Of a stretch of DNA of 64,000 nt, positions 6,984 to 60,357 are shown one piece after another (position 1 is the stretch's first letter; the number at the start of each line of letters is the position of its first letter). The DNA comes from Acidimicrobiia bacterium (lineage in GTDB: Bacteria; Actinomycetota; Acidimicrobiia; Acidimicrobiales; Aldehydirespiratoraceae), in the NCBI GenBank assembly GCA_022828135.1, contig JAJEJB010000031.1:29813-93812 (forward strand), in the 5' to 3' direction. The notes beneath the pieces are model-generated. The model did no database searches. It saw nothing but the letters and a program-made list of their open reading frames with translations, and was not told where the DNA came from. Position numbers and translations under genes: made by a program.

Positions 6984-8540
6984 GTGAATCTCTGGGAGCG
7001 GCCGGACGTTCACGCCAGACGTTGGTTCCTGCTCGGCGTGCTGAGCCTGACCCTGGTGCTGGTGGTCATGTCGGTATCGGGCCTGAACGTGGCCCTAGCC
7101 ACCTTGCAGCGGGATGTGGGTGTCACCGGGCCGCAGCTGCAGTGGATCGTGAACACCTACGCGCTCGCCTTCGGCGGGCTGCTGATGACCGGCGGAGCCA
7201 TCGGCGACCGCTACGGCCGCAAGGGCGCCCTGCTCGGAGGCCTGCTCGTGTTCGGGCTCGGCGCACTCCTCGGAGGCTTGGCCGACTCGGCCGAGGTCAT
7301 CCTGGTCGCCCGGGGAGCCATGGGGGTGGCAGCCGCGTTCGTCATGCCGGCCACGCTGTCGCTGCTGATCGAGATCTTCCCGCCTCCCGAGCGGCCGACC
7401 GCCATCGCGGTGTGGTCGGGCTTCGCCGGGGGCGGCGCCGCCATCGGGCCCGCGCTCACCGGCCTGTTCGTGACCGGATGGTGGTTCGTGCCGTCGTGGG
7501 GCTGGGAGGCCGGCTTCCTCTACAACGTTCCGGTGGTGGCCGTGGTGATGGTCGCGGTGGTGCTGTGGCTGCCCCGATCCCGGGACGAGCACCCCCGGCA
7601 TCTCGACCCTGCCGGAGCGGCGCTGTCCATCGTGGCCATGACCGCTCTGATCTACGGCATCATCGAGGGACCCGAGCAGGGCTGGACATCGGCACCGGTG
7701 CTCTCGGCCTTCGCGGTGGCGGTCGTCTTCGGTGCGGTCCTGCTGGGGTGGCAGCAGCGTGCCCGCCATCCGATGCTGCCGCTGGAACTGTTCGGCGACC
7801 GGCGCTTCAGCATCGGCTCGGCAGTGGTCACCATGACGTTCGTCGTGATGATCGGGTTCTGGTTCCTGTTTGCGCTCTACGTGCAGTTCGTCCTGGGATA
7901 CTCCGCTCTGGAGGCGGGGCTGGCGACTATGCCGGAGGCGTTGTCGTCGATGGTTGTGGCCCCGTTCACCGCCCCGCTCGCCGCCAGGTACGGATCACGC
8001 CGGATCATGGCGGTCGGCTTCGCGGTGTTGGCACTCACATTCCTGCCGCTCTCGCTGGTCGGCACCGACACCAGCTATTGGTTCCTGCTTCCACCGCTGG
8101 TGCTGGCCGGGGCTGGTCTCAGTCTGGCCATGACTCCGGCCACCAACGACATCATGGTCGCCACTCCCTACGACAAGGCCGGCATCGGCTCGGCCGTCAA
8201 CGACACCGCCCGTGAGCTGGGGGCTGCGCTGGGCATCGCCACGCTGGGAGCCCTGTCCACCTCGATCTACCGCAGCACGGTGGACGTGGCTCATCTGCCG
8301 CCCGAGGTGGCCGCCCCGGCGGCCGAGTCGATGGGTGCGGCCATTGAGGCCGCCTACCAACTATCCCGATCGGGCACGCTTGGTGAGGCCGCGGCCCAGG
8401 CGACGATCACCGAGACGGGACAAGCCTTCACAACCGCCTTCGCGCAGACGATGGCGATCTCGGGCGCGGTGTCGGCCCTGGCCGCGGTCGCCCTGCTAGT
8501 CGGCCACCTCGCCCAGGCCCGCCGCAGCTCGCTCGTCTGA
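6984..8540 (+). CDS. MFS transporter, DHA2 (EmrB/QacA-like, about 14 TMS)
   Basis: 518 aa and highly hydrophobic, with LAFGGLLMTGGAIGDRYGRKGALL (MFS motif A-like) and a length typical of 14-TMS drug:H+ antiporters. Confidence 0.85.
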   Translation: MNLWERPDVHARRWFLLGVLSLTLVLVVMSVSGLNVALATLQRDVGVTGPQLQWIVNTYALAFGGLLMTGGAIGDRYGRKGALLGGLLVFGLGALLGGLADSAEVILVARGAMGVAAAFVMPATLSLLIEIFPPPERPTAIAVWSGFAGGGAAIGPALTGLFVTGWWFVPSWGWEAGFLYNVPVVAVVMVAVVLWLPRSRDEHPRHLDPAGAALSIVAMTALIYGIIEGPEQGWTSAPVLSAFAVAVVFGAVLLGWQQRARHPMLPLELFGDRRFSIGSAVVTMTFVVMIGFWFLFALYVQFVLGYSALEAGLATMPEALSSMVVAPFTAPLAARYGSRRIMAVGFAVLALTFLPLSLVGTDTSYWFLLPPLVLAGAGLSLAMTPATNDIMVATPYDKAGIGSAVNDTARELGAALGIATLGALSTSIYRSTVDVAHLPPEVAAPAAESMGAAIEAAYQLSRSGTLGEAAAQATITETGQAFTTAFAQTMAISGAVSALAAVALLVGHLAQARRSSLV

Positions 8541-9830
8541 TTCGCGAGCAGTCGACTCGTAGATGGCCGCGGCCATGACCGACTGCTGCTCGGCCCGGCG
8601 CTGCCAGTAGATCCCGGCCCGCACGCCGTGCACCGCGGCGTCGGCGGGCTCGGCCGCCGCAGCCAGATCGATCAGGTGGCACGCCACTGCGGTCTTCCCC
8701 TCCCCGGCGAGGGTTTCGGCCCGGCTGGCGAGGGCGAGCGGACCGCCGGCCAGATCGGCCAGCTCCGACGCCACCGCGGCGTAGCGGGCCGGCTTGAGGT
8801 TGCTGGCGACGCCGTCGTACCAGCCGCCGTAGAGCCGCCAGACATTGCGGACCACGAATTCCGGCTCGTCATAGGTGGGCGCCAGGTAGGGACGCCGGAT
8901 CCGCTCGCCGGCCAGGCGGGCCTCGGCCAGCACGTCGTCGAGGCTTGCCCCGCGGTTCATCAAGTCGAGGGTCATCATGGTCAGCTCCTCCAGCACCGAC
9001 GCCGTGTCCAGCAGCACGCGGCGGATCCGCTCGCGGCCGGCGATGGGCAGCCCGTGGCCGGGCAGCAGCAGTTCGGGTCCGGCCTCGGCGATGTCGCGCA
9101 GGGCCGCGGCCCATTCCAGCGGGTAGCGCTGCGACTTCGCCGGGTTGCCGGCGTTGGGGAAGTGCCACAGCATCAGGTCGCCGGTGACGGCCACGGCCCT
9201 CTCCGCGATCCATGCCCACAAGTGGTCGTCGGTCTCGGCTCTCACATGACGCAGCTCGACCTCAAGCCCGCCAACGTCCAGGGTGATCCGGCGGCTGAAC
9301 GACACATCCAGATCGGGCACCTCGAACGCCCAGCCTCCGGCCAGATCCCAATTGGGCACCTTCCCGAACTGCCGCTGGTTGACCGACTGGTTGTAGCCGT
9401 CGGTCAGGCGGTACCGGACCACCCGGTCCGGCAGAGCCTCGTGCCCGACCAGCAGCGGTCGCCCTCCCGGCGTGGCCAGGCCGTCAACGAGAGCGGCCGC
9501 CCCGCCGGCGTGGTCGCGGTGTCCGTGGGTGAGGACGACATGGCTCACCGGTGCCCGGGTTCCGGCCCGGACCCGATCGGCCACCCGGGGTCCGAGATCG
9601 GGGACGCTGGAGTCGAACACGACGGCGGCGTCGTCGGTTTCGATCACATGGACGTGGGCGAACGACTCGATCATGGTGACGCCGTCCCGCAGTTCGTGGC
9701 TGGCGCCCAGACCGTCGCTCGGCAGTCCCAGGCCGAAGGGCCGCCCGTCGGGCTCGAACATCACGTTGTCGTCGATGGCGTCGGCCGACCTGGTCAGGAT
9801 GTCGCTGGTCATGGCCCAATGATGGGCCAT
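8496..9830 (-). CDS. MBL-fold hydrolase with alkyl-sulfatase-type dimerisation domain
   Basis: MAHHWAMTSD...VVLTHGHRDHAGG (HxHxDH) followed by ...YDEPEFVVRNVWRLYGGWYDG..., typical of the SdsA1/BDS1-like dimerisation domain. There is no SCP2 tail. An alternative start lies at 9812. Confidence 0.8.
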   Translation of the reverse strand: MAHHWAMTSDILTRSADAIDDNVMFEPDGRPFGLGLPSDGLGASHELRDGVTMIESFAHVHVIETDDAAVVFDSSVPDLGPRVADRVRAGTRAPVSHVVLTHGHRDHAGGAAALVDGLATPGGRPLLVGHEALPDRVVRYRLTDGYNQSVNQRQFGKVPNWDLAGGWAFEVPDLDVSFSRRITLDVGGLEVELRHVRAETDDHLWAWIAERAVAVTGDLMLWHFPNAGNPAKSQRYPLEWAAALRDIAEAGPELLLPGHGLPIAGRERIRRVLLDTASVLEELTMMTLDLMNRGASLDDVLAEARLAGERIRRPYLAPTYDEPEFVVRNVWRLYGGWYDGVASNLKPARYAAVASELADLAGGPLALASRAETLAGEGKTAVACHLIDLAAAAEPADAAVHGVRAGIYWQRRAEQQSVMAAAIYESTARESDERAAAGLGEVAD

Positions 9831-9856
9831 GAAAGGCCCGGCATCCCGCCTCGGGG

Positions 9857-11005
9857 TCAGAAGCGGTCGGCTATGCGGATCGACACCGCCGCGCCGGTCA
9901 CCGACGAGGCGGCCACGGCCAGCCACATCGCCGGGTAGCCGGAGTGCTCGATCAGCCACCCCGTGACCAGGGGACCCACGAATACCCCGACGTAGACGCC
10001 CATCTGCGTGATCCCGGTGGCACTGCCGGCAGCCCGGGGGTTGGCCCGCACGATCCCGTAGTTCGTGAACACCGGCCAGATCCAGCCGCACCCGAAGGAC
10101 AGCAGCATGGCGGCCACATGGGTGGCCGGTGAGCGCAGGGCCAACCCGGCCATGCCTATCGAGCCGACCAGGGCGGTGATGCCCCCCACCCGGAACGGCT
10201 TGACCCTCATCGTGTCCGACAGCCAGCCGCTCACGACTCTCATCGTGATGCCGGTGGCCGCCCCGACACTCAGGAACAGCCCGGCGGTGCCGGGTCCCAG
10301 CCCGGCGTCGACGCCGGAGCCAACCCCCCAGGCAACCAGTGATCCGGCGCTGAAGGCCAGGAACGCACCCACCGCAGCGCCCAGGAAGAGATCCCGGGAC
10401 GACGACTCCGGCACCGAGTCCCGTGTTGCCGCCGTCCGGAACACCGACGATCCGACGGCCACCCTGACCAGCACCAGCGACATCAGCGCGAACACCGCTC
10501 CCGCCACATAGGCCCAGCGCCAGCCCACGGTGAGGGCCAGCGAGGGCACTGCGAAGCCGGCCAGCAGGGTGGCCGTAGGCAGGCCCGACTGCTTGATCGA
10601 CACGGCCAGACCCAGCCGGGGCAGTTGAGCCTGGGCCAGGGCCAGGTTGACGGACGTCTGGTTGGCGGCGTTGGCCAGCCCGGCCAGCACCAGGAAGCCG
10701 ATCACCGCCAGGAACGAGCGGGCGCTGGCGGCCAGAGCCAGTTGAACCGCAATGGACACTCCGAGCGCGAGGGTCATCTGGTTGAGCGGCCCGATTCGCT
10801 GGGCCAGCCGCCCCAGCATGACCGACCCGACCATGGCGGCCCCGAAGAACGATCCGAGACCCCATCCGTACACGCCTTCGGAAACGCCCATCTCGGCACT
10901 CACCTGCACCGACATGGCGCCGATGAGGAACCCGGGGAGCACGGTGGACACGGTGGCCATCACCGCGGCGTTGATCACCAGGGACGGACGCGCTTCAGCA
11001 GACAC
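9857..11005 (-). CDS. MFS transporter (12 TMS type)
   Basis: 382 aa and hydrophobic throughout. The GTG at 11005 is preceded by GAAGGAAGAG. Confidence 0.8.
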   Translation of the reverse strand: MSAEARPSLVINAAVMATVSTVLPGFLIGAMSVQVSAEMGVSEGVYGWGLGSFFGAAMVGSVMLGRLAQRIGPLNQMTLALGVSIAVQLALAASARSFLAVIGFLVLAGLANAANQTSVNLALAQAQLPRLGLAVSIKQSGLPTATLLAGFAVPSLALTVGWRWAYVAGAVFALMSLVLVRVAVGSSVFRTAATRDSVPESSSRDLFLGAAVGAFLAFSAGSLVAWGVGSGVDAGLGPGTAGLFLSVGAATGITMRVVSGWLSDTMRVKPFRVGGITALVGSIGMAGLALRSPATHVAAMLLSFGCGWIWPVFTNYGIVRANPRAAGSATGITQMGVYVGVFVGPLVTGWLIEHSGYPAMWLAVAASSVTGAAVSIRIADRF

Positions 11006-11050
11006 GGCGCGAACTCTTCCTTCTCGCCCTAGCCCTTGGGGGCAACACCA

Positions 11051-11293
11051 TCATGTGACCTCGAAACTACCCAGGTAAGCCCGCCTCACTGCCGGATCGG
11101 CCAGCACGCCCGCGGTTGAACCCTCGGCGGTGAGAGCCCCCGAATCCAGCACGTAGGTGCGTTCGGTGAAGTCGGCCACGAGCGACACATCATGCTCCAC
11201 GAGCACATCGGATACACCTGGGAGCACGACCTGCACCTGTGCCTGCGCCGGGCCAAGGTGGGCGAACTCCATTTCGGCTCGGCCTCCCACCAC
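11051..11293 (-). pseudogene. C-terminal remnant of a LivG/LivF-type ABC ATPase
   Basis: The translation ends ...VLVEHDVSLVADFTERTYVLDSGALTAEGSTAGVLADPAVRRAYLG, the conserved C-terminus of branched-chain amino-acid ABC ATPases. Walker A/B and signature motifs are absent. Confidence 0.6.
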
Positions 11294-11311: not shown

Positions 11312-11515
11312 CTAGCCCTCCGGGCGGGAGCCGCCTAGCTCCGGCGATTGAGCATCGGTCAGGTAGCCGGCCCGCGCCAACGCCAGAACCAGGTTGTCCA
11401 GCTTGCCCTCCACCCGACGGATGTCGGAGCGCAGCAGATGGAACGCCCCTGCTAGCACGCCAACCAGCGCGCTCCCCAGCACACCGATGAGCGTTGCCGC
11501 AATGGCGGGATCCAC
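11312..11515 (-). CDS. Small single-pass membrane/coiled-coil protein, paralog 3 of 3 (67 aa)
   Basis: MDPAIAATLIGVLGSALVGVLAGAFHLLRSDIRRVEGKLDNLVLALARAGYLTDAQSP... The GTG start lies 9 nt after the TAG of paralog 2. It shares the N-terminal TM helix, HLLRSD and LALARAG motifs with the two upstream ORFs. Confidence 0.6.
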   Translation of the reverse strand: MDPAIAATLIGVLGSALVGVLAGAFHLLRSDIRRVEGKLDNLVLALARAGYLTDAQSPELGGSRPEG

Positions 11516-11524
11516 GGCCCGTCC

Positions 11525-11779
11525 CTATCTCTGCGAGTCGGTCGGCGGCGGGGGAGGCTGCGGGTCGACCAGGAACCCCGCCCTGGCCAGCGCCAGAATC
11601 AACCCGTCCAGCTTCGCTTCGATCCGGTCGAATCGCGAGTTGGTGTCGTGATGGTCGGCTCGGGTCTCGGAACGGTACTCCTTGAGATCGGAACGCAGCA
11701 GGTGGCAAGCACCGGCGAAGACACCAAGCAGGGCACTCACCACGATTCCGACGACGACCACGGTCGTGACGGGCTCCAC
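11525..11779 (-). CDS. Small single-pass membrane/coiled-coil protein, paralog 2 of 3 (84 aa)
   Basis: MEPVTTVVVVGIVVSALLGVFAGACHLLRSDLKEYRSETRADHHDTNSRFDRIEAKLDGLILALARAGFLVDPQPPPPP... The GTG start lies 9 nt after the TAG of paralog 1. Confidence 0.6.
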   Translation of the reverse strand: MEPVTTVVVVGIVVSALLGVFAGACHLLRSDLKEYRSETRADHHDTNSRFDRIEAKLDGLILALARAGFLVDPQPPPPPTDSQR

Positions 11780-11788
11780 GGCGCGGCT

Positions 11789-12013
11789 CTAGTTCTGCGG
11801 TTCCGAAGGAGACTGCGGGTCGACCAAGAAGCCCGCCCTGGCCAGCGCCAGGGTCAGGCTGTCGACCTTTCCTTCAAGACGGTCCATCCGTGTGTTGGTC
11901 TCGACGCGATGCTCCTTGAGGTCGGAGCGCAGGAGGTGGAAGGCGCTGGCGTACACACCCAGCAAAGCCGCCACTAGGACGCCAATGAGGGTGGCGGCTA
12001 TCGCGGGATCCAT
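11789..12013 (-). CDS. Small single-pass membrane/coiled-coil protein, paralog 1 of 3 (74 aa)
   Basis: MDPAIAATLIGVLVAALLGVYASAFHLLRSDLKEHRVETNTRMDRLEGKVDSLTLALARAGFLVDPQSP... The ATG at 12013 lies directly downstream of a promoter-like AT-rich patch. Confidence 0.65.
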   Translation of the reverse strand: MDPAIAATLIGVLVAALLGVYASAFHLLRSDLKEHRVETNTRMDRLEGKVDSLTLALARAGFLVDPQSPSEPQN

Positions 12014-12019
12014 GCTGGC

Positions 12020-12048
12020 ATGCTAACCCGCTCAACCCATGGAAGCAA
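12020..12048 (-). promoter_or_regulatory. Candidate sigma70-type promoter giving a leaderless transcript of the small-ORF array
   Basis: The minus strand reads TTGCTT (12048-12043), 17 nt, TAGCAT (12025-12020), 6 nt, then ATG (12013). It sits in a locally AT-rich 55-bp patch. Confidence 0.4.
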
Positions 12049-12069
12049 CCTAAAACATCATGAAATAGT

Positions 12070-12711
12070 TCAGAAAGGGTCAAAGCGGACGGGCAGCGTC
12101 GCCGGGCCGCGGAAGGCGTAGCCGCTGATCACCGGGGTCTCGGCGTCGGGGTCGAGGCGCAGGTTGGGGAGGCGGTCGAGCACGGCGTTGATCCCCACCT
12201 CCAGTTCCATGCGGGCCAGGTGCATGCCGAGGCACTGGTGCGGCCCGGTGCCGAAGGCCATGTGCTGCTGGGGCTCGCGATCCAGGTCCCATTCTCCGGG
12301 GTCGGCCCATCGGGCCTCGTCGCGTGACGCCGAGCCGTTGATCACCGAGACGGACGATCCCGCGGGCACCGGACAGCCGCCGATCTCCGTGTCGGTCGCG
12401 GCGACCCGAGCCACCATCGTCACCGATGTCTCCCAGCGCAGGGTCTCCTCCACTGCGGCCGGCACCAGCGACCGGTCGGCCAGCACCCGGGCCATCGCCT
12501 CGGGACGCTCCAGCAGGGCCAGCAGACAGGACCCGAAGGCGCGGTAGGTGGTCTCGGCCCCGGCCGGCAGCAGCAGGCGCAGGAATCCGTAGATCTTCTC
12601 GTCGGCGAGCCGGGCACCGTCGATCTCGGCGTGCACCAGCTCCGACAACAGGTCGCCGGCGGGCTCCGTCCGTCTGGCTTCCACCAAGGGTTCCAGGTAG
12701 TCGCGCATGGC
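12070..12711 (-). pseudogene. Cytochrome P450, C-terminal half only
   Basis: ...LLPAGAETTYRAF (I-helix), EETLRWE (ExxR) and FGTGPHQCLGMHLAR (Cys heme ligand loop). The N-terminal ~190 aa of a normal P450 are missing. Confidence 0.75.
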
Positions 12712-12807
12712 CTGGGACGCGGCATCTCGGTCTCCATGCCCCCGGCCTCCACCTCGGCGCCCGCGCTGCGACCCTGGGGGCTCACAGGATGGCGCCGCGG
12801 GAATCGG

Positions 12808-12966
12808 TCGCTCTAAGCGGGCCGCGAAGTCGTCCCAGTACCGGTCGCTCTGTAGCAGGATGAGGCTGATGCAGCGGTCGTCGGCGGTGCGGAACACGCC
12901 CACGCCCGGGTTGGGGTTCTTGCGCCGGGCCGTCTCGACCAACTTCATCAGGGCCTCCCGGCCGCC
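12808..12966 (-). pseudogene. Internal fragment of a family-III (CaiB/BaiF-type) CoA-transferase fused in-frame upstream of the P450 remnant
   Basis: ...NPNPGVGVFRTADDRCISLILLQSDRYWDDFAARLERP... resembles the central Y/F-x-T/C-ADG...D(R)YW...LGRPEL block of CaiB-type enzymes. No N-terminal or C-terminal parts are present. Confidence 0.5.
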
Positions 12967-12986
12967 GACACCACCATGGTGCACCA

Positions 12987-13016
12987 GTGAGCGCAGCGAA
13001 CAAGAGCGGGAGACAC
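12987..13016 (+). repeat. Dispersed repeat, copy A (right half only)
   Basis: GTGAGCGCAGCGAACAAGAGCGGGAGACAC equals the 3' part of the 47-nt core plus the GAGACAC tail. The left half of the core is missing. Confidence 0.8.
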
Positions 13017-13075
13017 CCCCTAGCAACGCGACGGGCTTGCGCCTACCCGCGCACGCTCTAGGCAGCGCGTCGCCT

Positions 13076-15655
13076 CTAGTGGTAGGAGATTGCCTCCAGC
13101 AGATCGACGCGGTTGGCCCGGCGAGCCGGCGCCAGCGAGGCCAGGAGGCCGGCCACCGCCGCCACGACCAGGTACACGACCACGGTGCCCCCCGGCAGAG
13201 CCACGGTGGAGATGATGCTGCTGGGGAGGGACCCGGCCGCGATCGACCCCGCCACCAACCCGGTCACGACACCTATGACCCCGCCGAAGACGGCCACGAT
13301 GACCCCCTCCAGCAGGATGGCGGCCCGGATCTGCCGCTTGCCCATGCCGACGGCCCGCAGCAGCCCGATCTCGCGGGTCCGCTCGAACACTGACAGGGCC
13401 ATGGTGTTGGAGAAGCCCATCACCGCGATCAGCAGCGCCATGATCAGGAACACGTTGATCACGACCAGCAGGTTGTCGACCTGAGTGGACCGGCTGGCGC
13501 GGTACTCGGCCTGGTCGCGCACTACGACCTGCGGGTACTCGGCGAGACCCGCCTCCAGCGCGGCCCGGGCGTCCTCGCTGCTGACTCCCGCCGCGGTGAC
13601 CGCGGTGACCAGGCTGTCCTGGTCGCCGACGACGTAGAGGTCCCAGTCATCGAGGTCGATGACCCAGGAGCCCAACACCGAGCCCTCGGTGTGGAGGGCC
13701 ACCACCTCGAAGGCGACTTCCTCGTGGCCCGAGATCTCCAGCCGCACTTCGTCGCCCACGGCGAGACCGAGCTCCTCGGCGGCGTCGACATGCACCATCA
13801 CGTCACCGGGACCGGCTCCGGCCACGCTGCCGGAGGTGACGTTCGGCTCCACATGGCTCGAGAAGGAGGCGAGGTTGGCAGCCGAGAGCACGTGCTGGGT
13901 GCCGTCGGCCGTGCGCACGCCGTTCGGCCGGAACCGAAATACCTCCACCGATTCCAGTTCGAGCACCTGGGCGATCTCCGATCCGGCTTCCGAACTGAAG
14001 GCGAGCTGCTGGTTGTCGCAGCGCCCGGCGCACAGCATCCAGTCCGCCCGGACCGAGTCCTCCAGCTGGCCGTTGAGGGTCTCCTTGAAGGACGTGCCCA
14101 GCACGGTGACCAGCGACACCATGGCCAGCCCGATCATCAACGCCGAGGCGGTGGTGGCCGTGCGGCGGGGGTTGCGAACCGCGTTGAGTCGGGCCAGACG
14201 CCCGTTCAGGCGGAACAGCCGGGCTGCCGGCCATCCCAGCACCTGCGACATCGGACCGGCGACCGCGGGGCTGCAGATGTTGACGCCCACCAGCACCCCT
14301 AGGGCGCCGAAGCCGAGCAGCAGGACGAGCGCCGATATGGACAGATCCGACAGCAGACCCACGACCAGAAGCACCAGCCCGATCGCGCCGACCACCGACC
14401 CGATGATGATCGACCTGCGCTGGCTGTAGGGGTCGATGTTGGCGTCGTCGGCCAGCGCCACCATAGGCGTCACCCGGCGGGCCCGCATCGCCGGCAACAG
14501 GGAGATGATCACCGTCAGGCCGACGCCGAGCGCCAGCGCGGCGATGATCGGGCCTGCGCCGACCGTGAGATCCGCCGAGGGAAGATTCGAACCTGCTGCA
14601 GCCAGGATGCCGCTCATGGCCTCGGACACCAGCAGACCGAGACCGAGACCCACCACGGCGGCCAACGCACCCATGACCAAGGCCTCGAACGCCACCGTCG
14701 AAGCCACCTGCCGCCGGTCGGCTCCGAGCACCCGCAGCAATCCGAACTCCTTGATGCGCTGGCCTGTGACCAGGGTGAAGGTGTTGTAGGTGATGAACGC
14801 CGAGATGACCAGCACGATGACGGCGAAGGCCAGCAGCGCGTTGCGGAACACGTCCAGGAGGTCGCTCATCTCCTGATCGCGGGCTTCGACCTGCTCCTGC
14901 TGCGAGAGGACCACGTAGGCCGGGCCCAGCTCGCGCTCGATGGACGCGGTCACCTCTTCGAGCGAGGCCCCTGGCGACAGGCTCACATCGATGAGGTCGT
15001 ACCCGCCGCCGTCGTGCAGGACGTCACGAGCGGTGTCCATGTCCCAGGCGACCAGCTGGAAGGGGGACTGGAAGTCGGGCTCCATGAAGTAGAAGACGCC
15101 AACCAGCTCGAAGGAATGCGTTCCGGTGGGGGTGGCGACCTTGTAGCGCTCACCGATCCGGAAGCCGAAGGTGGCCGCAGTGTGTTGGTCCATGGCGAAC
15201 TCGTCCGGCCCGGCCGGCCTGCGGCTGACCCCGTCGTCGACAGGAAAGATCCTGCCCAGCGACTCGTCCTCCGGCCAGCCCATTCCGCCCTGTTGGGCGA
15301 GCTCGGGATCGGTCGCCTCGCCGTCGGCGCCGATGGCAACGACGTTGAACTCCGACACCGCGCCGGCGGTCTTCTCCACACCGTCAATCGCTTCCAGCCG
15401 ATCCTTCAACGAGGGGTCGAGCAACGGCAGGTCCTGCCACTGGTCGACGTTGCCCAGGGTCGACTGCGAGCGGACCGACAGGTCGACCTGGTCGTAGAGA
15501 TCGCCGGCCAGGTCGCTGAGGGCGGTTCGCAACCCGTCGGTGTTGATCAGCACGCCGACGGTGAGGGCCACCCCGGCCACCACCGCCAGCGTGGTGAGCG
15601 TGAACCGGATCCGTGTGGCCGCAATGTTGCGGATGCTGTAGCGCAGCAGGGTCAT
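13076..15655 (-). CDS. ABC transporter permease, MacB/FtsX type with two FtsX domains
   Basis: 859 aa, MTLLRYSIRNIAATRIRFTLTTLAVVAGVAL..., with a duplicated 4-TMS FtsX module and large extracytoplasmic loops. It lies downstream of a MacB-type ATPase. Confidence 0.85.
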   Translation of the reverse strand: MTLLRYSIRNIAATRIRFTLTTLAVVAGVALTVGVLINTDGLRTALSDLAGDLYDQVDLSVRSQSTLGNVDQWQDLPLLDPSLKDRLEAIDGVEKTAGAVSEFNVVAIGADGEATDPELAQQGGMGWPEDESLGRIFPVDDGVSRRPAGPDEFAMDQHTAATFGFRIGERYKVATPTGTHSFELVGVFYFMEPDFQSPFQLVAWDMDTARDVLHDGGGYDLIDVSLSPGASLEEVTASIERELGPAYVVLSQQEQVEARDQEMSDLLDVFRNALLAFAVIVLVISAFITYNTFTLVTGQRIKEFGLLRVLGADRRQVASTVAFEALVMGALAAVVGLGLGLLVSEAMSGILAAAGSNLPSADLTVGAGPIIAALALGVGLTVIISLLPAMRARRVTPMVALADDANIDPYSQRRSIIIGSVVGAIGLVLLVVGLLSDLSISALVLLLGFGALGVLVGVNICSPAVAGPMSQVLGWPAARLFRLNGRLARLNAVRNPRRTATTASALMIGLAMVSLVTVLGTSFKETLNGQLEDSVRADWMLCAGRCDNQQLAFSSEAGSEIAQVLELESVEVFRFRPNGVRTADGTQHVLSAANLASFSSHVEPNVTSGSVAGAGPGDVMVHVDAAEELGLAVGDEVRLEISGHEEVAFEVVALHTEGSVLGSWVIDLDDWDLYVVGDQDSLVTAVTAAGVSSEDARAALEAGLAEYPQVVVRDQAEYRASRSTQVDNLLVVINVFLIMALLIAVMGFSNTMALSVFERTREIGLLRAVGMGKRQIRAAILLEGVIVAVFGGVIGVVTGLVAGSIAAGSLPSSIISTVALPGGTVVVYLVVAAVAGLLASLAPARRANRVDLLEAISYH

Positions 15656-15665
15656 CGGTCCGCTA

Positions 15666-15743
15666 CGGCCTCTGCGTTTTTCCGCTCTTGTTCGCTGCGC
15701 TCACGGGCCGCTCGGGCCACGGCCTCGCAAGCTCGGCCTCTGG
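15666..15743 (-). repeat. Dispersed repeat, copy B (full core, between ABC ATPase stop and permease start)
   Basis: The reverse complement of 15682-15728 is GCGAGGCCGTGGCCCGAGCGGCCCGTGAGCGCAGCGAACAAGAGCGG. It is bracketed by a perfect 9-bp direct repeat, CGGCCTCTG, at 15666-15674 and 15734-15742. Confidence 0.85.
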
Positions 15744-18363: not shown

Positions 18364-18498
18364 AATCCGGCTAGGGGTCGCTGGCAGCGGTCGTGGCTCT
18401 ACTACCGGGCCGCCTCAATCTTCGCGGGCACCAACGAGATCCAGCGCAACGTCATCGGCGAGCGGACCCTGGGCCTCCCCCGCCAGAGGCCGAGCTGA
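18325..18498 (+). pseudogene. C-terminal remnant (57 codons) of a second acyl-CoA dehydrogenase
   Basis: [57 protein letters not shown]. The [21 protein letters not shown] block is the conserved ACAD C-terminus. Confidence 0.6.
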
Positions 18499-18553
18499 GC
18501 GAGGCCGTGGCCCGAGCGGCCCGTGAGCGCAGCGAACAAGAGCGGGAGTACAC
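18483..18553 (+). repeat. Dispersed repeat, copy C (full core)
   Basis: CCAGAGGCCGAGCTGA, then GCGAGGCCGTGGCCCGAGCGGCCCGTGAGCGCAGCGAACAAGAGCGG (18499-18545), then GAGTACAC. The left flank overlaps the last codons and stop of the ACAD remnant. Confidence 0.85.
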
Positions 18554-60299: not shown

Positions 60300-60357
60300 G
60301 TGTCTCCCGCTCTTGTTCTCTGCGCTCACGGGCCGCTCAGGCCACGGCCTCGCTGAG
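60300..60357 (-). repeat. Dispersed repeat, copy D (full core, between ADH stop and kinase start)
   Basis: The reverse complement of 60307-60353 is GCGAGGCCGTGGCCtGAGCGGCCCGTGAGCGCAGaGAACAAGAGCGG (45/47 to copies B and C), followed by GAGACAC. Confidence 0.85.

Follow-up and report, generated by a model that had tools for sequence, protein, structure and literature searches.

A 64,000-nt stretch of DNA from an Acidimicrobiia bacterium of the Aldehydirespiratoraceae (GenBank assembly GCA_022828135.1, contig JAJEJB010000031.1, positions 29,813 to 93,812 of the forward strand), termed the window here, carries three small tandem genes on its minus strand. They encode related proteins of 67–84 aa, each with one predicted transmembrane (TM) helix followed by a predicted coiled coil, and they are preceded by a putative promoter of the leaderless type. 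The genes, the promoter elements and the neighboring features are listed in Table 1.

Both internal junctions of the array have the same form, i.e. a TAG stop codon, 9 nt and a GTG start codon. The other two proteins are 62% and 71% identical to the product of gene 1, 32 alignment columns are invariant, and copies 1 and 3 have the first 13 residues in common. All three proteins share an M-[DE]-P start and the block R-[LIV]-E-[GA]-K-[LV]-D-x-L-x-L-A-L-A-R-A-G-[FY]-L. Length differences among the copies come from indels located after the HLLRSD motif; gene 2 carries one RADHHD-type unit in this region, termed the stalk, and gene 3 has no repeat unit. Gene 3 is a member of a separate orthologue group that is usually last in arrays. 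A first-pass annotation, made from the sequence without database searches, had described the three related minus-strand open reading frames (ORFs) with their start codons, the two identical junctions and the common N-termini of copies 1 and 3, and these descriptions were confirmed. It had put the indels after HLLRSD at about 10–20 aa; in-frame indels are present there, but they measure 7, 18 and 25 aa.

The first-pass annotation had also argued that the ORFs are real genes since conservation is at the protein level, and here the comparative data bear it out. DNA identity of the conserved blocks among copies is only 65–78%, although the proteins are well conserved. The ratio of nonsynonymous to synonymous substitution rates (dN/dS, Nei–Gojobori method) is 0.32 between copies 1 and 2, 0.14 between copies 1 and 3, and 0.32 between copies 2 and 3, and not near 1. 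Orthologues of the short 67-aa copy, found in nine loci including the window and recognizable by a RRVEGKLDNLVLALAR signature, have a median dN/dS of 0.18. Over the first 30 codons of 39 family genes, the mean proportions of nonsynonymous and synonymous differences (pN and pS) are 0.13 and 0.55, respectively. The GC content at the three codon positions of the genes (0.68–0.78/0.43–0.49/0.79–0.81) has a coding-frame pattern, but a plus-strand shadow ORF at 11648–11977 has similar values and this check is weak by itself. The exact gene 1 protein and the exact gene triplet are present on two further assemblies. GC-rich DNA yields many spurious ORFs, and the three might in principle be no genes at all, but a non-coding repeat element or the shadow ORFs of a repeat rich in GC. 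This is already refuted by dN/dS values well below 1, the in-frame indels, the excess of protein over DNA conservation, the 279 homologs that have the same frame and architecture (described below), and a scan of the whole window against Rfam, which gave no match. On these comparisons, the three ORFs are real genes under purifying selection.

The two 9-nt gaps of the window place all three ORFs in one frame, with TAG and three codons between consecutive genes. Programmed TAG read-through to a single fusion protein with three TM helices was considered and rejected; the gaps in relatives vary from 7 to 12 nt and the frame is not conserved, and the common frame of the window looks coincidental.

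Table 1. Coordinates of the array, its promoter elements and neighboring features in the window
Feature	Position	Strand	Description
Gene 1	12013-11789	-	74 aa, ATG start; medium-length stalk
Gene 2	11779-11525	-	84 aa, GTG start; 9 nt past gene 1 TAG; long-stalk copy
Gene 3	11515-11312	-	67 aa, GTG start; 9 nt past gene 2 TAG; short copy
Promoter core (putative)	12020..12049	-	-35 GTTGCTT 12049-12043; 17-nt spacer; -10 TAGCAT 12025-12020
Conserved AT-rich element TATTTCAT	12060..12067	-	About 11 nt upstream of the -35 box
Chimeric remnant ORF, deletion scar	12070..13026	-	CoA-transferase III fragment (about 12803-12931) and P450 C-terminal half (12070 to about 12723)
ABC (ATP-binding cassette) ATPase C-terminal fragment, branched-chain-amino-acid type	11051..11293	-	Left by roughly 6.6-kb deletion
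Alkyl-sulfatase-like metallo-beta-lactamase (MBL)-fold enzyme gene	8499-9800	-	Neighbor
Major facilitator superfamily (MFS) transporter gene	9857-11005	-	Neighbor
Permease gene	13076-15655	-	Neighbor; 859 aa, two MacB_PCD+FtsX modules

Distribution of the family and the array promoter

A profile of the three proteins, searched against 5.8 billion clusters, found 279 proteins at E ≤ 0.01 (best E = 1e-41). All of these homologs have the same architecture, and none is functionally named. Among 1.84 billion representatives at 50% identity, searched exhaustively with HMMER, 50 clusters reached E ≤ 1e-3, and 14 of these reached E ≤ 1e-10. When one genome per species was scanned, 18 loci were found, all in metagenome-assembled genomes (MAGs) labelled Acidimicrobiales, Acidimicrobiia, Acidimicrobiaceae or Candidatus Aldehydirespirator; a scan of IMG/VR viral contigs showed no relative. 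Copies at NCBI are named 'hypothetical protein', and two JGI clusters of distant relatives are mislabelled 'chromosome segregation ATPase'. Judged from these searches, the family is restricted to a narrow group of Acidimicrobiales, is unannotated and is new. The Aldehydirespiratoraceae (UBA11606) are reported to include sponge-symbiotic as well as free-living lineages (PMC11706023).

Distant members of the family are about 25–45% identical. They keep the N-terminal TM helix, an [LW]-L-R-S-D motif and a C-terminal K-V-D-x-L-I-M-A-L-A-R-S-G-x-L-x-D-P motif, and their stalks consist of RFDRLD and RFDKMDDKVD units of 7 and 11 residues. One genome (CBDCMW010000002.1) has two arrays about 20 kb apart. 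The first, L015, is of the HLLRSD type and lies beside a cytochrome P450 gene; the second, L020, is of the distant RFDRLD type and lies beside a divergent Amidohydro_2 gene. Because the two arrays are found in the same genome, the two subfamilies coexist and are old paralogs.

Arrays of one to four tandem copies, all on one strand and with gaps of 7–12 nt, are the rule in relatives, and the stop codon is TAG at all 20 internal junctions examined. In the arrays L003–L024 and in the window, the TAG of internal junctions is usually preceded by CCGCAGGG(T), which encodes the residues P-Q-G, and is followed by a G-rich spacer. Genes that are last in an array often end with ...GG.G(L/S)EG or ...ANS.P(A/G) instead. 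The sequence for the conserved protein C-terminus may also act as a weak ribosome-binding region for the cistron that follows.

The region upstream of gene 1 had been described in the first-pass annotation as the lowest-GC patch of the neighborhood and as a promoter for a leaderless mRNA. The lowest GC content between 8 and 16 kb is indeed 0.59, in the 200-nt interval 11900–12099, which holds the 56-nt region upstream of gene 1. In this region, TTGCTT (12048–12043) is followed by 17 nt, TAGCAT (12025–12020), 6 nt and the ATG at 12013. An alignment of the 77 nt upstream of the first gene from the 18 loci reveals the overall conserved pattern GTTGC-N17/18-TAnnnT-N6/7-ATG. Three positions of the -10 TAnnnT, namely T, A and the final T, do not vary, and GTTGC of the -35 box is nearly invariant, while the spacer of 17–18 nt varies in sequence. 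The distance between the -10 box and the start codon is fixed at 6 nt, with 7 nt in two loci. The arrays of the distant subfamily (L020, L025 and L026), with roughly 40% protein identity, show GTTGTA, a spacer, TAACTT, 7 nt and ATG. A strict consensus scan for promoters and terminators did not call this promoter and found no terminator; the evidence for the promoter is therefore that of the comparative alignment.

Upstream of the -35 box is the AT-rich element TATTTCAT, whose core bases are conserved at about 70% or more across the 18 loci. A related sequence, TATCTTC(C/T)GTG, is present at the same place in the distant subfamily, and the combined pattern of element and promoter occurs once in the 64-kb window. 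The element may be a UP element or an operator. When compared by eye with the Zur and IdeR box consensus sequences, it showed no convincing match.

Start codon usage also differs by position in the array. First genes begin with ATG in 16 of 18 arrays, vis-à-vis 5 of 20 internal genes (Fisher p = 9e-5). The sequence has the layout of leaderless actinobacterial units, in which a -10 TAnnnT ends 6–7 nt before ATG or GTG, and the predicted transcript would have neither a 5′ untranslated region nor a Shine–Dalgarno sequence. Because the promoter is conserved at a fixed distance from the start codon and first cistrons are biased toward ATG, it is probably functional, with a transcript that starts at or next to the start codon and a first cistron that is leaderless. 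Conservation in the 18 loci and in the distant subfamily together with the ATG bias supports the first-pass description, the transcription start being a predicted one. Judged from the gene arrangement, the later cistrons are translationally coupled across the gaps of 7–12 nt.

Protein architecture and stalk length

The proteins have the order N-tail, TM helix of about 22 residues, HLLRSD, charged stalk, KVDxLILALARAGFLxDP and a Pro-rich disordered tail. The only TM segment of the three window proteins is at residues 4–25 approximately, where hydrophobicity over 19 residues (KD19) reaches 2.27–2.64; the gene 1 product has its peak of 2.36 at residues 4–22. The N-tail is acidic and has three residues, one of them acidic and none basic. 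Basic residues flank the cytoplasmic side of TM helices according to the positive-inside rule. Since no lysine or arginine is found before the TM helix and three to four are found in the 15 residues just after it, the proteins are predicted to insert with the N-terminus out and the C-terminus in (N-out/C-in).

One face of the TM helix displays a zipper of small residues, G-x3-[AS]-x3-G-x3-[GS], formed by G11, A/S15, G19 and G/S23. In 83 sequences, small residues are found at positions 11, 15, 19 and 23 in 100%, 92%, 100% and 92%, respectively. Zipper motifs of this type mediate the packing of TM helices. Further along the chain, a 3–4 spacing of hydrophobic residues is continuous from L28 to the C-terminal motif. 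An AlphaFold2 (AF2) monomer model of the gene 2 protein, made with the family alignment, shows a single helix at residues 3–67 and a disordered tail, with a mean predicted local distance difference test (pLDDT) score of 75.5 and values above 85 over the TM helix. The KD19 values and the AF2 helix agree, and as predictions they uphold the first-pass proposal of an N-terminal TM helix plus a coiled coil. We have high confidence in this structural description of the proteins.

Units of 7 and 11 residues make up the stalk. Of 182 unique family proteins, 181 have a spacing from LRSD to KxDxLI that equals the shortest spacing plus 7a+11b residues. The differences seen are 0, 7, 11, 14, 18, 22, 25, 29, 32, 33, 36, 40 and so on, and the extra stalk residues range from 0 to about 62 across the family; only 52% of the integers in that range fit the 7a+11b form. 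Periodicities of 7, 11 and 18 residues return a residue to the same helical face. With such steps in stalk length, the angle between the TM zipper and the C-terminal motif would stay fixed. A quantised stalk length is expected if one oligomer interface runs the full length of the protein.

The first-pass annotation recognized no family for these proteins, and database searches lead to the same result. Scans of the three window proteins against Pfam, NCBIfam, PHROGs and PADLOC gave nothing significant, and a sequence profile search of the PDB gave chance coiled-coil matches only (E ≥ 0.07). In Pfam and PHROG scans, distant relatives match generic coiled-coil models only: Baculo_PEP_C, HalX, DUF7310, HSBP1, Apolipoprotein, CCDC90-like, DUF948 and XhlA.

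A resemblance to DUF948 or YtxH proteins had been suggested in the first-pass annotation. The models of DUF948 (PF06103) and YtxH (PF12732) do not match the window proteins at hmmscan E ≤ 10. DUF948 matches 4 of 28 distant relatives at E ≥ 0.018, which is no better than many generic coiled-coil models, and the 25 families that distant relatives match best do not include YtxH. Membership in either family is thus not supported, but the analogy in architecture is a fair one, in that the DUF948 protein FacZ has the same layout. In FacZ of Staphylococcus aureus, a short outside N-terminus leads into the N-terminal TM helix, and a membrane-proximal coiled coil in the cytoplasm is followed by a disordered tail; the protein is predicted to form a homo-oligomer of 3–4 protomers and it recruits the cytoplasmic partner GpsB (PMC10914604). 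The window proteins share the layout of short outside N-terminus, TM helix, coiled coil and disordered tail, with a topology that is predicted. They differ in that they are about half the size (67–84 aa vis-à-vis about 18 kDa) and have a Pro/Gln/Asp-rich tail instead of a positively charged one. In addition, FacZ is a protein of Firmicutes, whereas the window family belongs to Acidimicrobiales and is encoded in tandem arrays with variable 7/11-mer stalks. By architecture, FacZ is the closest characterised protein, although the window proteins do not classify as members of its family.

Other known proteins show partial likenesses. PspB and YhcB/DUF1043 are small, bitopic proteins of the inner membrane, in which an N-terminal TM helix precedes an oligomerising cytoplasmic part that is helical or a coiled coil. 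The window proteins have no Pfam or NCBIfam match to these and have different motifs, HLLRSD and LILALARAGFL. There is no match to PspB (PF06667) and no psp operon context, the neighbors being catabolic enzymes and transporters. XhlA (PF10779) and the CCDC90-like/DUF1640 proteins (PF07798) have charged coiled-coil repeats of the 'RLDRLEGKVD' type and one TM helix, but in these the coiled coil comes first and the TM helix is C-terminal, the reverse of the order in the window proteins. PF07798 has weak precomputed matches in some relatives with long repeats and none for the window proteins; XhlA matches 3 of 28 distant members at E ≥ 0.043, which reflects repeat composition only, and does not match the window proteins. 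The b/b′ subunits of F-type ATP synthase have an N-terminal TM anchor and a long, hendecad-periodic cytoplasmic stalk, and in some organisms they are two heterodimerising tandem paralogs. The window proteins differ from these in that they are much shorter and show neither homology nor an atp operon context.

Genomic context and loss of neighboring genes

In related genomes the neighborhood, determined by tblastn with called genes, is that of a common syntenic block: Amidohydro_2, CoA_transf_3, P450, the array and two convergent acyl-CoA dehydrogenase genes. The block surrounds the array in 14 of the 18 genome loci and in the contig locus L024. A CO-dehydrogenase-like trio is often next in the block and a solute-binding protein gene is further downstream, while the double-FtsX/MacB-type permease gene is about 5.5 kb upstream of the array. 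Exceptions are L008, which has no P450 gene, and L016 and L018, where the permease is directly upstream and no other genes of the block are found. Arrays of the distant subfamily sit beside other genes.

The closest relative is L003 (OZ241903.1), with 92% DNA identity across the array block and 96% identity of the copy 1 protein. Relative to L003, about 3.6, 0.37 and 0.53 kb are missing from the window upstream of the array and about 6.6 kb downstream, and the array with its promoter is spared. The four deletions took away Amidohydro_2, both acyl-CoA dehydrogenase genes and further downstream genes, as well as the 5′ half of the P450 gene and the greater part of the CoA-transferase gene. Downstream, window positions 11205–11038 align to L003 17445–17612, directly after L003 10829. 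The composition of the chimeric remnant ORF upstream of the array was determined from breakpoints relative to L003 and L021 and from tblastn fragments; its P450 part matches only positions 212–431 of the 462 positions of the Pfam p450 model. In the ABC ATPase fragment on the other side, only the 27-position BCA_ABC_TP_C motif is matched. The flanks affected by deletion are at 11038–11293 and 12070–13064 of the window.

The first-pass annotation placed the array between truncated genes, as if inserted as a cassette. Both flanks are truncated, but insertion does not agree with the synteny in 14 of 18 loci or with the deletions found by comparison with L003. From these alignments, the array is at its ancestral position, and its flanks have been eroded by deletions that represent local gene decay in a catabolic island. 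An integron or mobile cassette was also considered and rejected, given that the spacers are only 7–12 nt, relevant inverted repeats are absent and the position is syntenic. The array and promoter are retained in loci with a truncated or missing P450 gene (the window, L008, L016 and L018) and also elsewhere (L020 and L025–L027), and because of this the array unit would function independently of the neighboring P450 and CoA-transferase genes.

Two other observations concern the window. An ORF at 8496–10865 (789 aa) overlaps the MFS gene out of frame; its upstream portion extends the sulfatase ORF as a GC-rich shadow. A repeat that is rich in GC and about 60 nt long (CCGCTCTTGTTCGCTGCGCTCACGGGCCGCTCGGGCCACGGCCTCGC...) is found at 15682–15740 (+), 18483–18548 (-) and 60324–60353 (+). 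The three copies share a 30-nt core with 0–1 mismatch, where none would be expected by chance. At least the first two copies are between predicted ORFs, and several copies are present in the related MAG locus L016. The repeat may be a repetitive extragenic palindromic (REP)-like element or a miniature inverted-repeat transposable element (MITE)-like one.

Possible functions of the array

By its sequence and in comparison, the array is an independently promoted small operon for three paralogous single-pass membrane proteins, each predicted as one continuous helix, and its first cistron is probably leaderless. Under the explanation that we favor, the proteins would insert N-out/C-in and are predicted to form parallel homo- or hetero-oligomers by way of one interface that extends from the TM zipper through the stalk. 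Such a single interface would explain why stalk length changes only in phase-preserving steps. The shared C-terminal motif and tail would stand at a different distance from the membrane in each paralog (18–25 residues, or roughly 27–37 Å), and the proteins could serve as a cytoplasmic tether or adaptor for a partner, in the manner proposed for FacZ. Oligomerisation and partner binding are what we infer from the motifs and the length rule. The tether function itself, which draws on analogy with FacZ, is proposed tentatively; the explanation as a whole, structure and tether together, is one we would hold and doubt in equal measure.

Perhaps the proteins are phase-locked 'molecular rulers', whereby an array presents a single conserved C-terminal docking motif at a set of fixed heights over the cytoplasmic membrane. 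A partner in Aldehydirespiratoraceae, e.g. an enzyme assembly or a cytoskeletal or division factor, could be organised in this way. This reading is speculative and on balance rather improbable.

Several points weigh against the tether explanation. No conserved partner gene was seen in the neighborhoods of the loci compared. Single-copy arrays are found (L006, L007, L009 and L018), so that three paralogs need not form a fixed hetero-oligomer. The net charge just past the TM helix is about zero, and the topology call comes from the lysine and arginine counts alone. The 7/11 quantisation could be due in part to duplication of a 33-nt unit and to shared ancestry, as opposed to selection for phase. 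Conservation of the tail (PQG-TAG-G) may in part be at the DNA level, as a ribosome-binding region or an overlap with a convergent gene.

Alternatively, the proteins may be envelope or membrane-stress proteins that sense or buffer membrane perturbation and have no specific tether role, similar to PspB/PspC, YtxH or the LEA-like hydrophilins. PspB is 74 aa in length, and the array proteins are like it in size and bitopic layout. Their charged 11-mer repeats are as in LEA/apolipoprotein-type proteins, distant members weakly match the Apolipoprotein, DUF948 and CCDC90-like models, and the conserved element ahead of the -35 box points to regulation. However, models of PspB, PspC and YtxH do not match, the loci compared have no PspA/IM30 gene nearby, and the hydrophobic stripe of the repeats (L, F) is narrow, as is usual for coiled coils but not for amphipathic helices that bind lipids. 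A stress role is therefore considered unlikely, though it is the alternative with the most in its favor.

The proteins might instead be accessory TM subunits of a larger membrane complex, e.g. the double-FtsX/MacB-type ABC permease (Table 1), with the zipper packed against partner helices. Small TM proteins with zippers often regulate transporters, AcrZ being an example, and the permease gene is within 10 kb upstream in 13 of the 18 genome loci and in the window; in L016 and L018 it directly precedes the array. In most loci, however, the gap is about 5.5 kb, with an oppositely oriented gene between in some, and the permease is found neither in L010, L012, L014, L015 and L019 nor beside arrays of the distant subfamily. 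The array also keeps its own promoter everywhere. A role as permease subunits is accordingly improbable.

Glycine zippers are typical of homo-oligomeric pores, which raises the question of whether these are pore-forming, holin-like or toxic small membrane proteins that oligomerise via the zipper. The window proteins have a weak match to holin_phiLC3 (E = 0.14, with a score of 12.4 vis-à-vis a cut-off of 39.7 bits) and to PHROGs of Rz-like spanins (E = 0.3–0.4, and down to about 2e-4 for some relatives), but all of these are far below family thresholds. There is no significant match to a holin or spanin family and no lysis-cassette or prophage context: lysin and phage genes are absent nearby, the scan of IMG/VR viral contigs gave no relative, the chromosomal position is syntenic across the genomes sampled, and the genes have no antitoxin-like partner. 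A pore or toxin is thus a quite improbable reading. That the genes encode precursors of ribosomally synthesized and post-translationally modified peptides (RiPPs), to be modified by the adjacent P450, was suggested by tandem small ORFs with a conserved N-terminus directly downstream of P450 in 14 of 18 genome loci, but is already largely refuted and highly improbable, as the array persists with P450 truncated or absent and in P450-free contexts, the N-terminus is a true TM helix, purifying selection extends over the whole length, and the C-terminal region, with its single aromatic residue, is conserved instead of hypervariable.

Small membrane proteins are under-annotated; in this family, every named database copy is either a 'hypothetical protein' or, in the two JGI clusters, mislabelled. 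The array proteins provide a clean definition of a family by their motifs, the conserved leaderless promoter and the strict 7/11-residue length rule, and the length rule predicts a continuous coiled coil in register with the TM glycine zipper. What is new is the protein family; the design of an N-terminal TM helix plus a coiled coil is common and already known, and the finding is a modest one. Since the array and its promoter survived several deletions of flanking catabolic genes, the sequence comparison suggests that the array unit is more strongly retained in these genomes than its neighbors. Should the FacZ-like tether prove true, Actinobacteria would have in this family a counterpart to a class of organisers of cell division and the envelope that was recognised recently.

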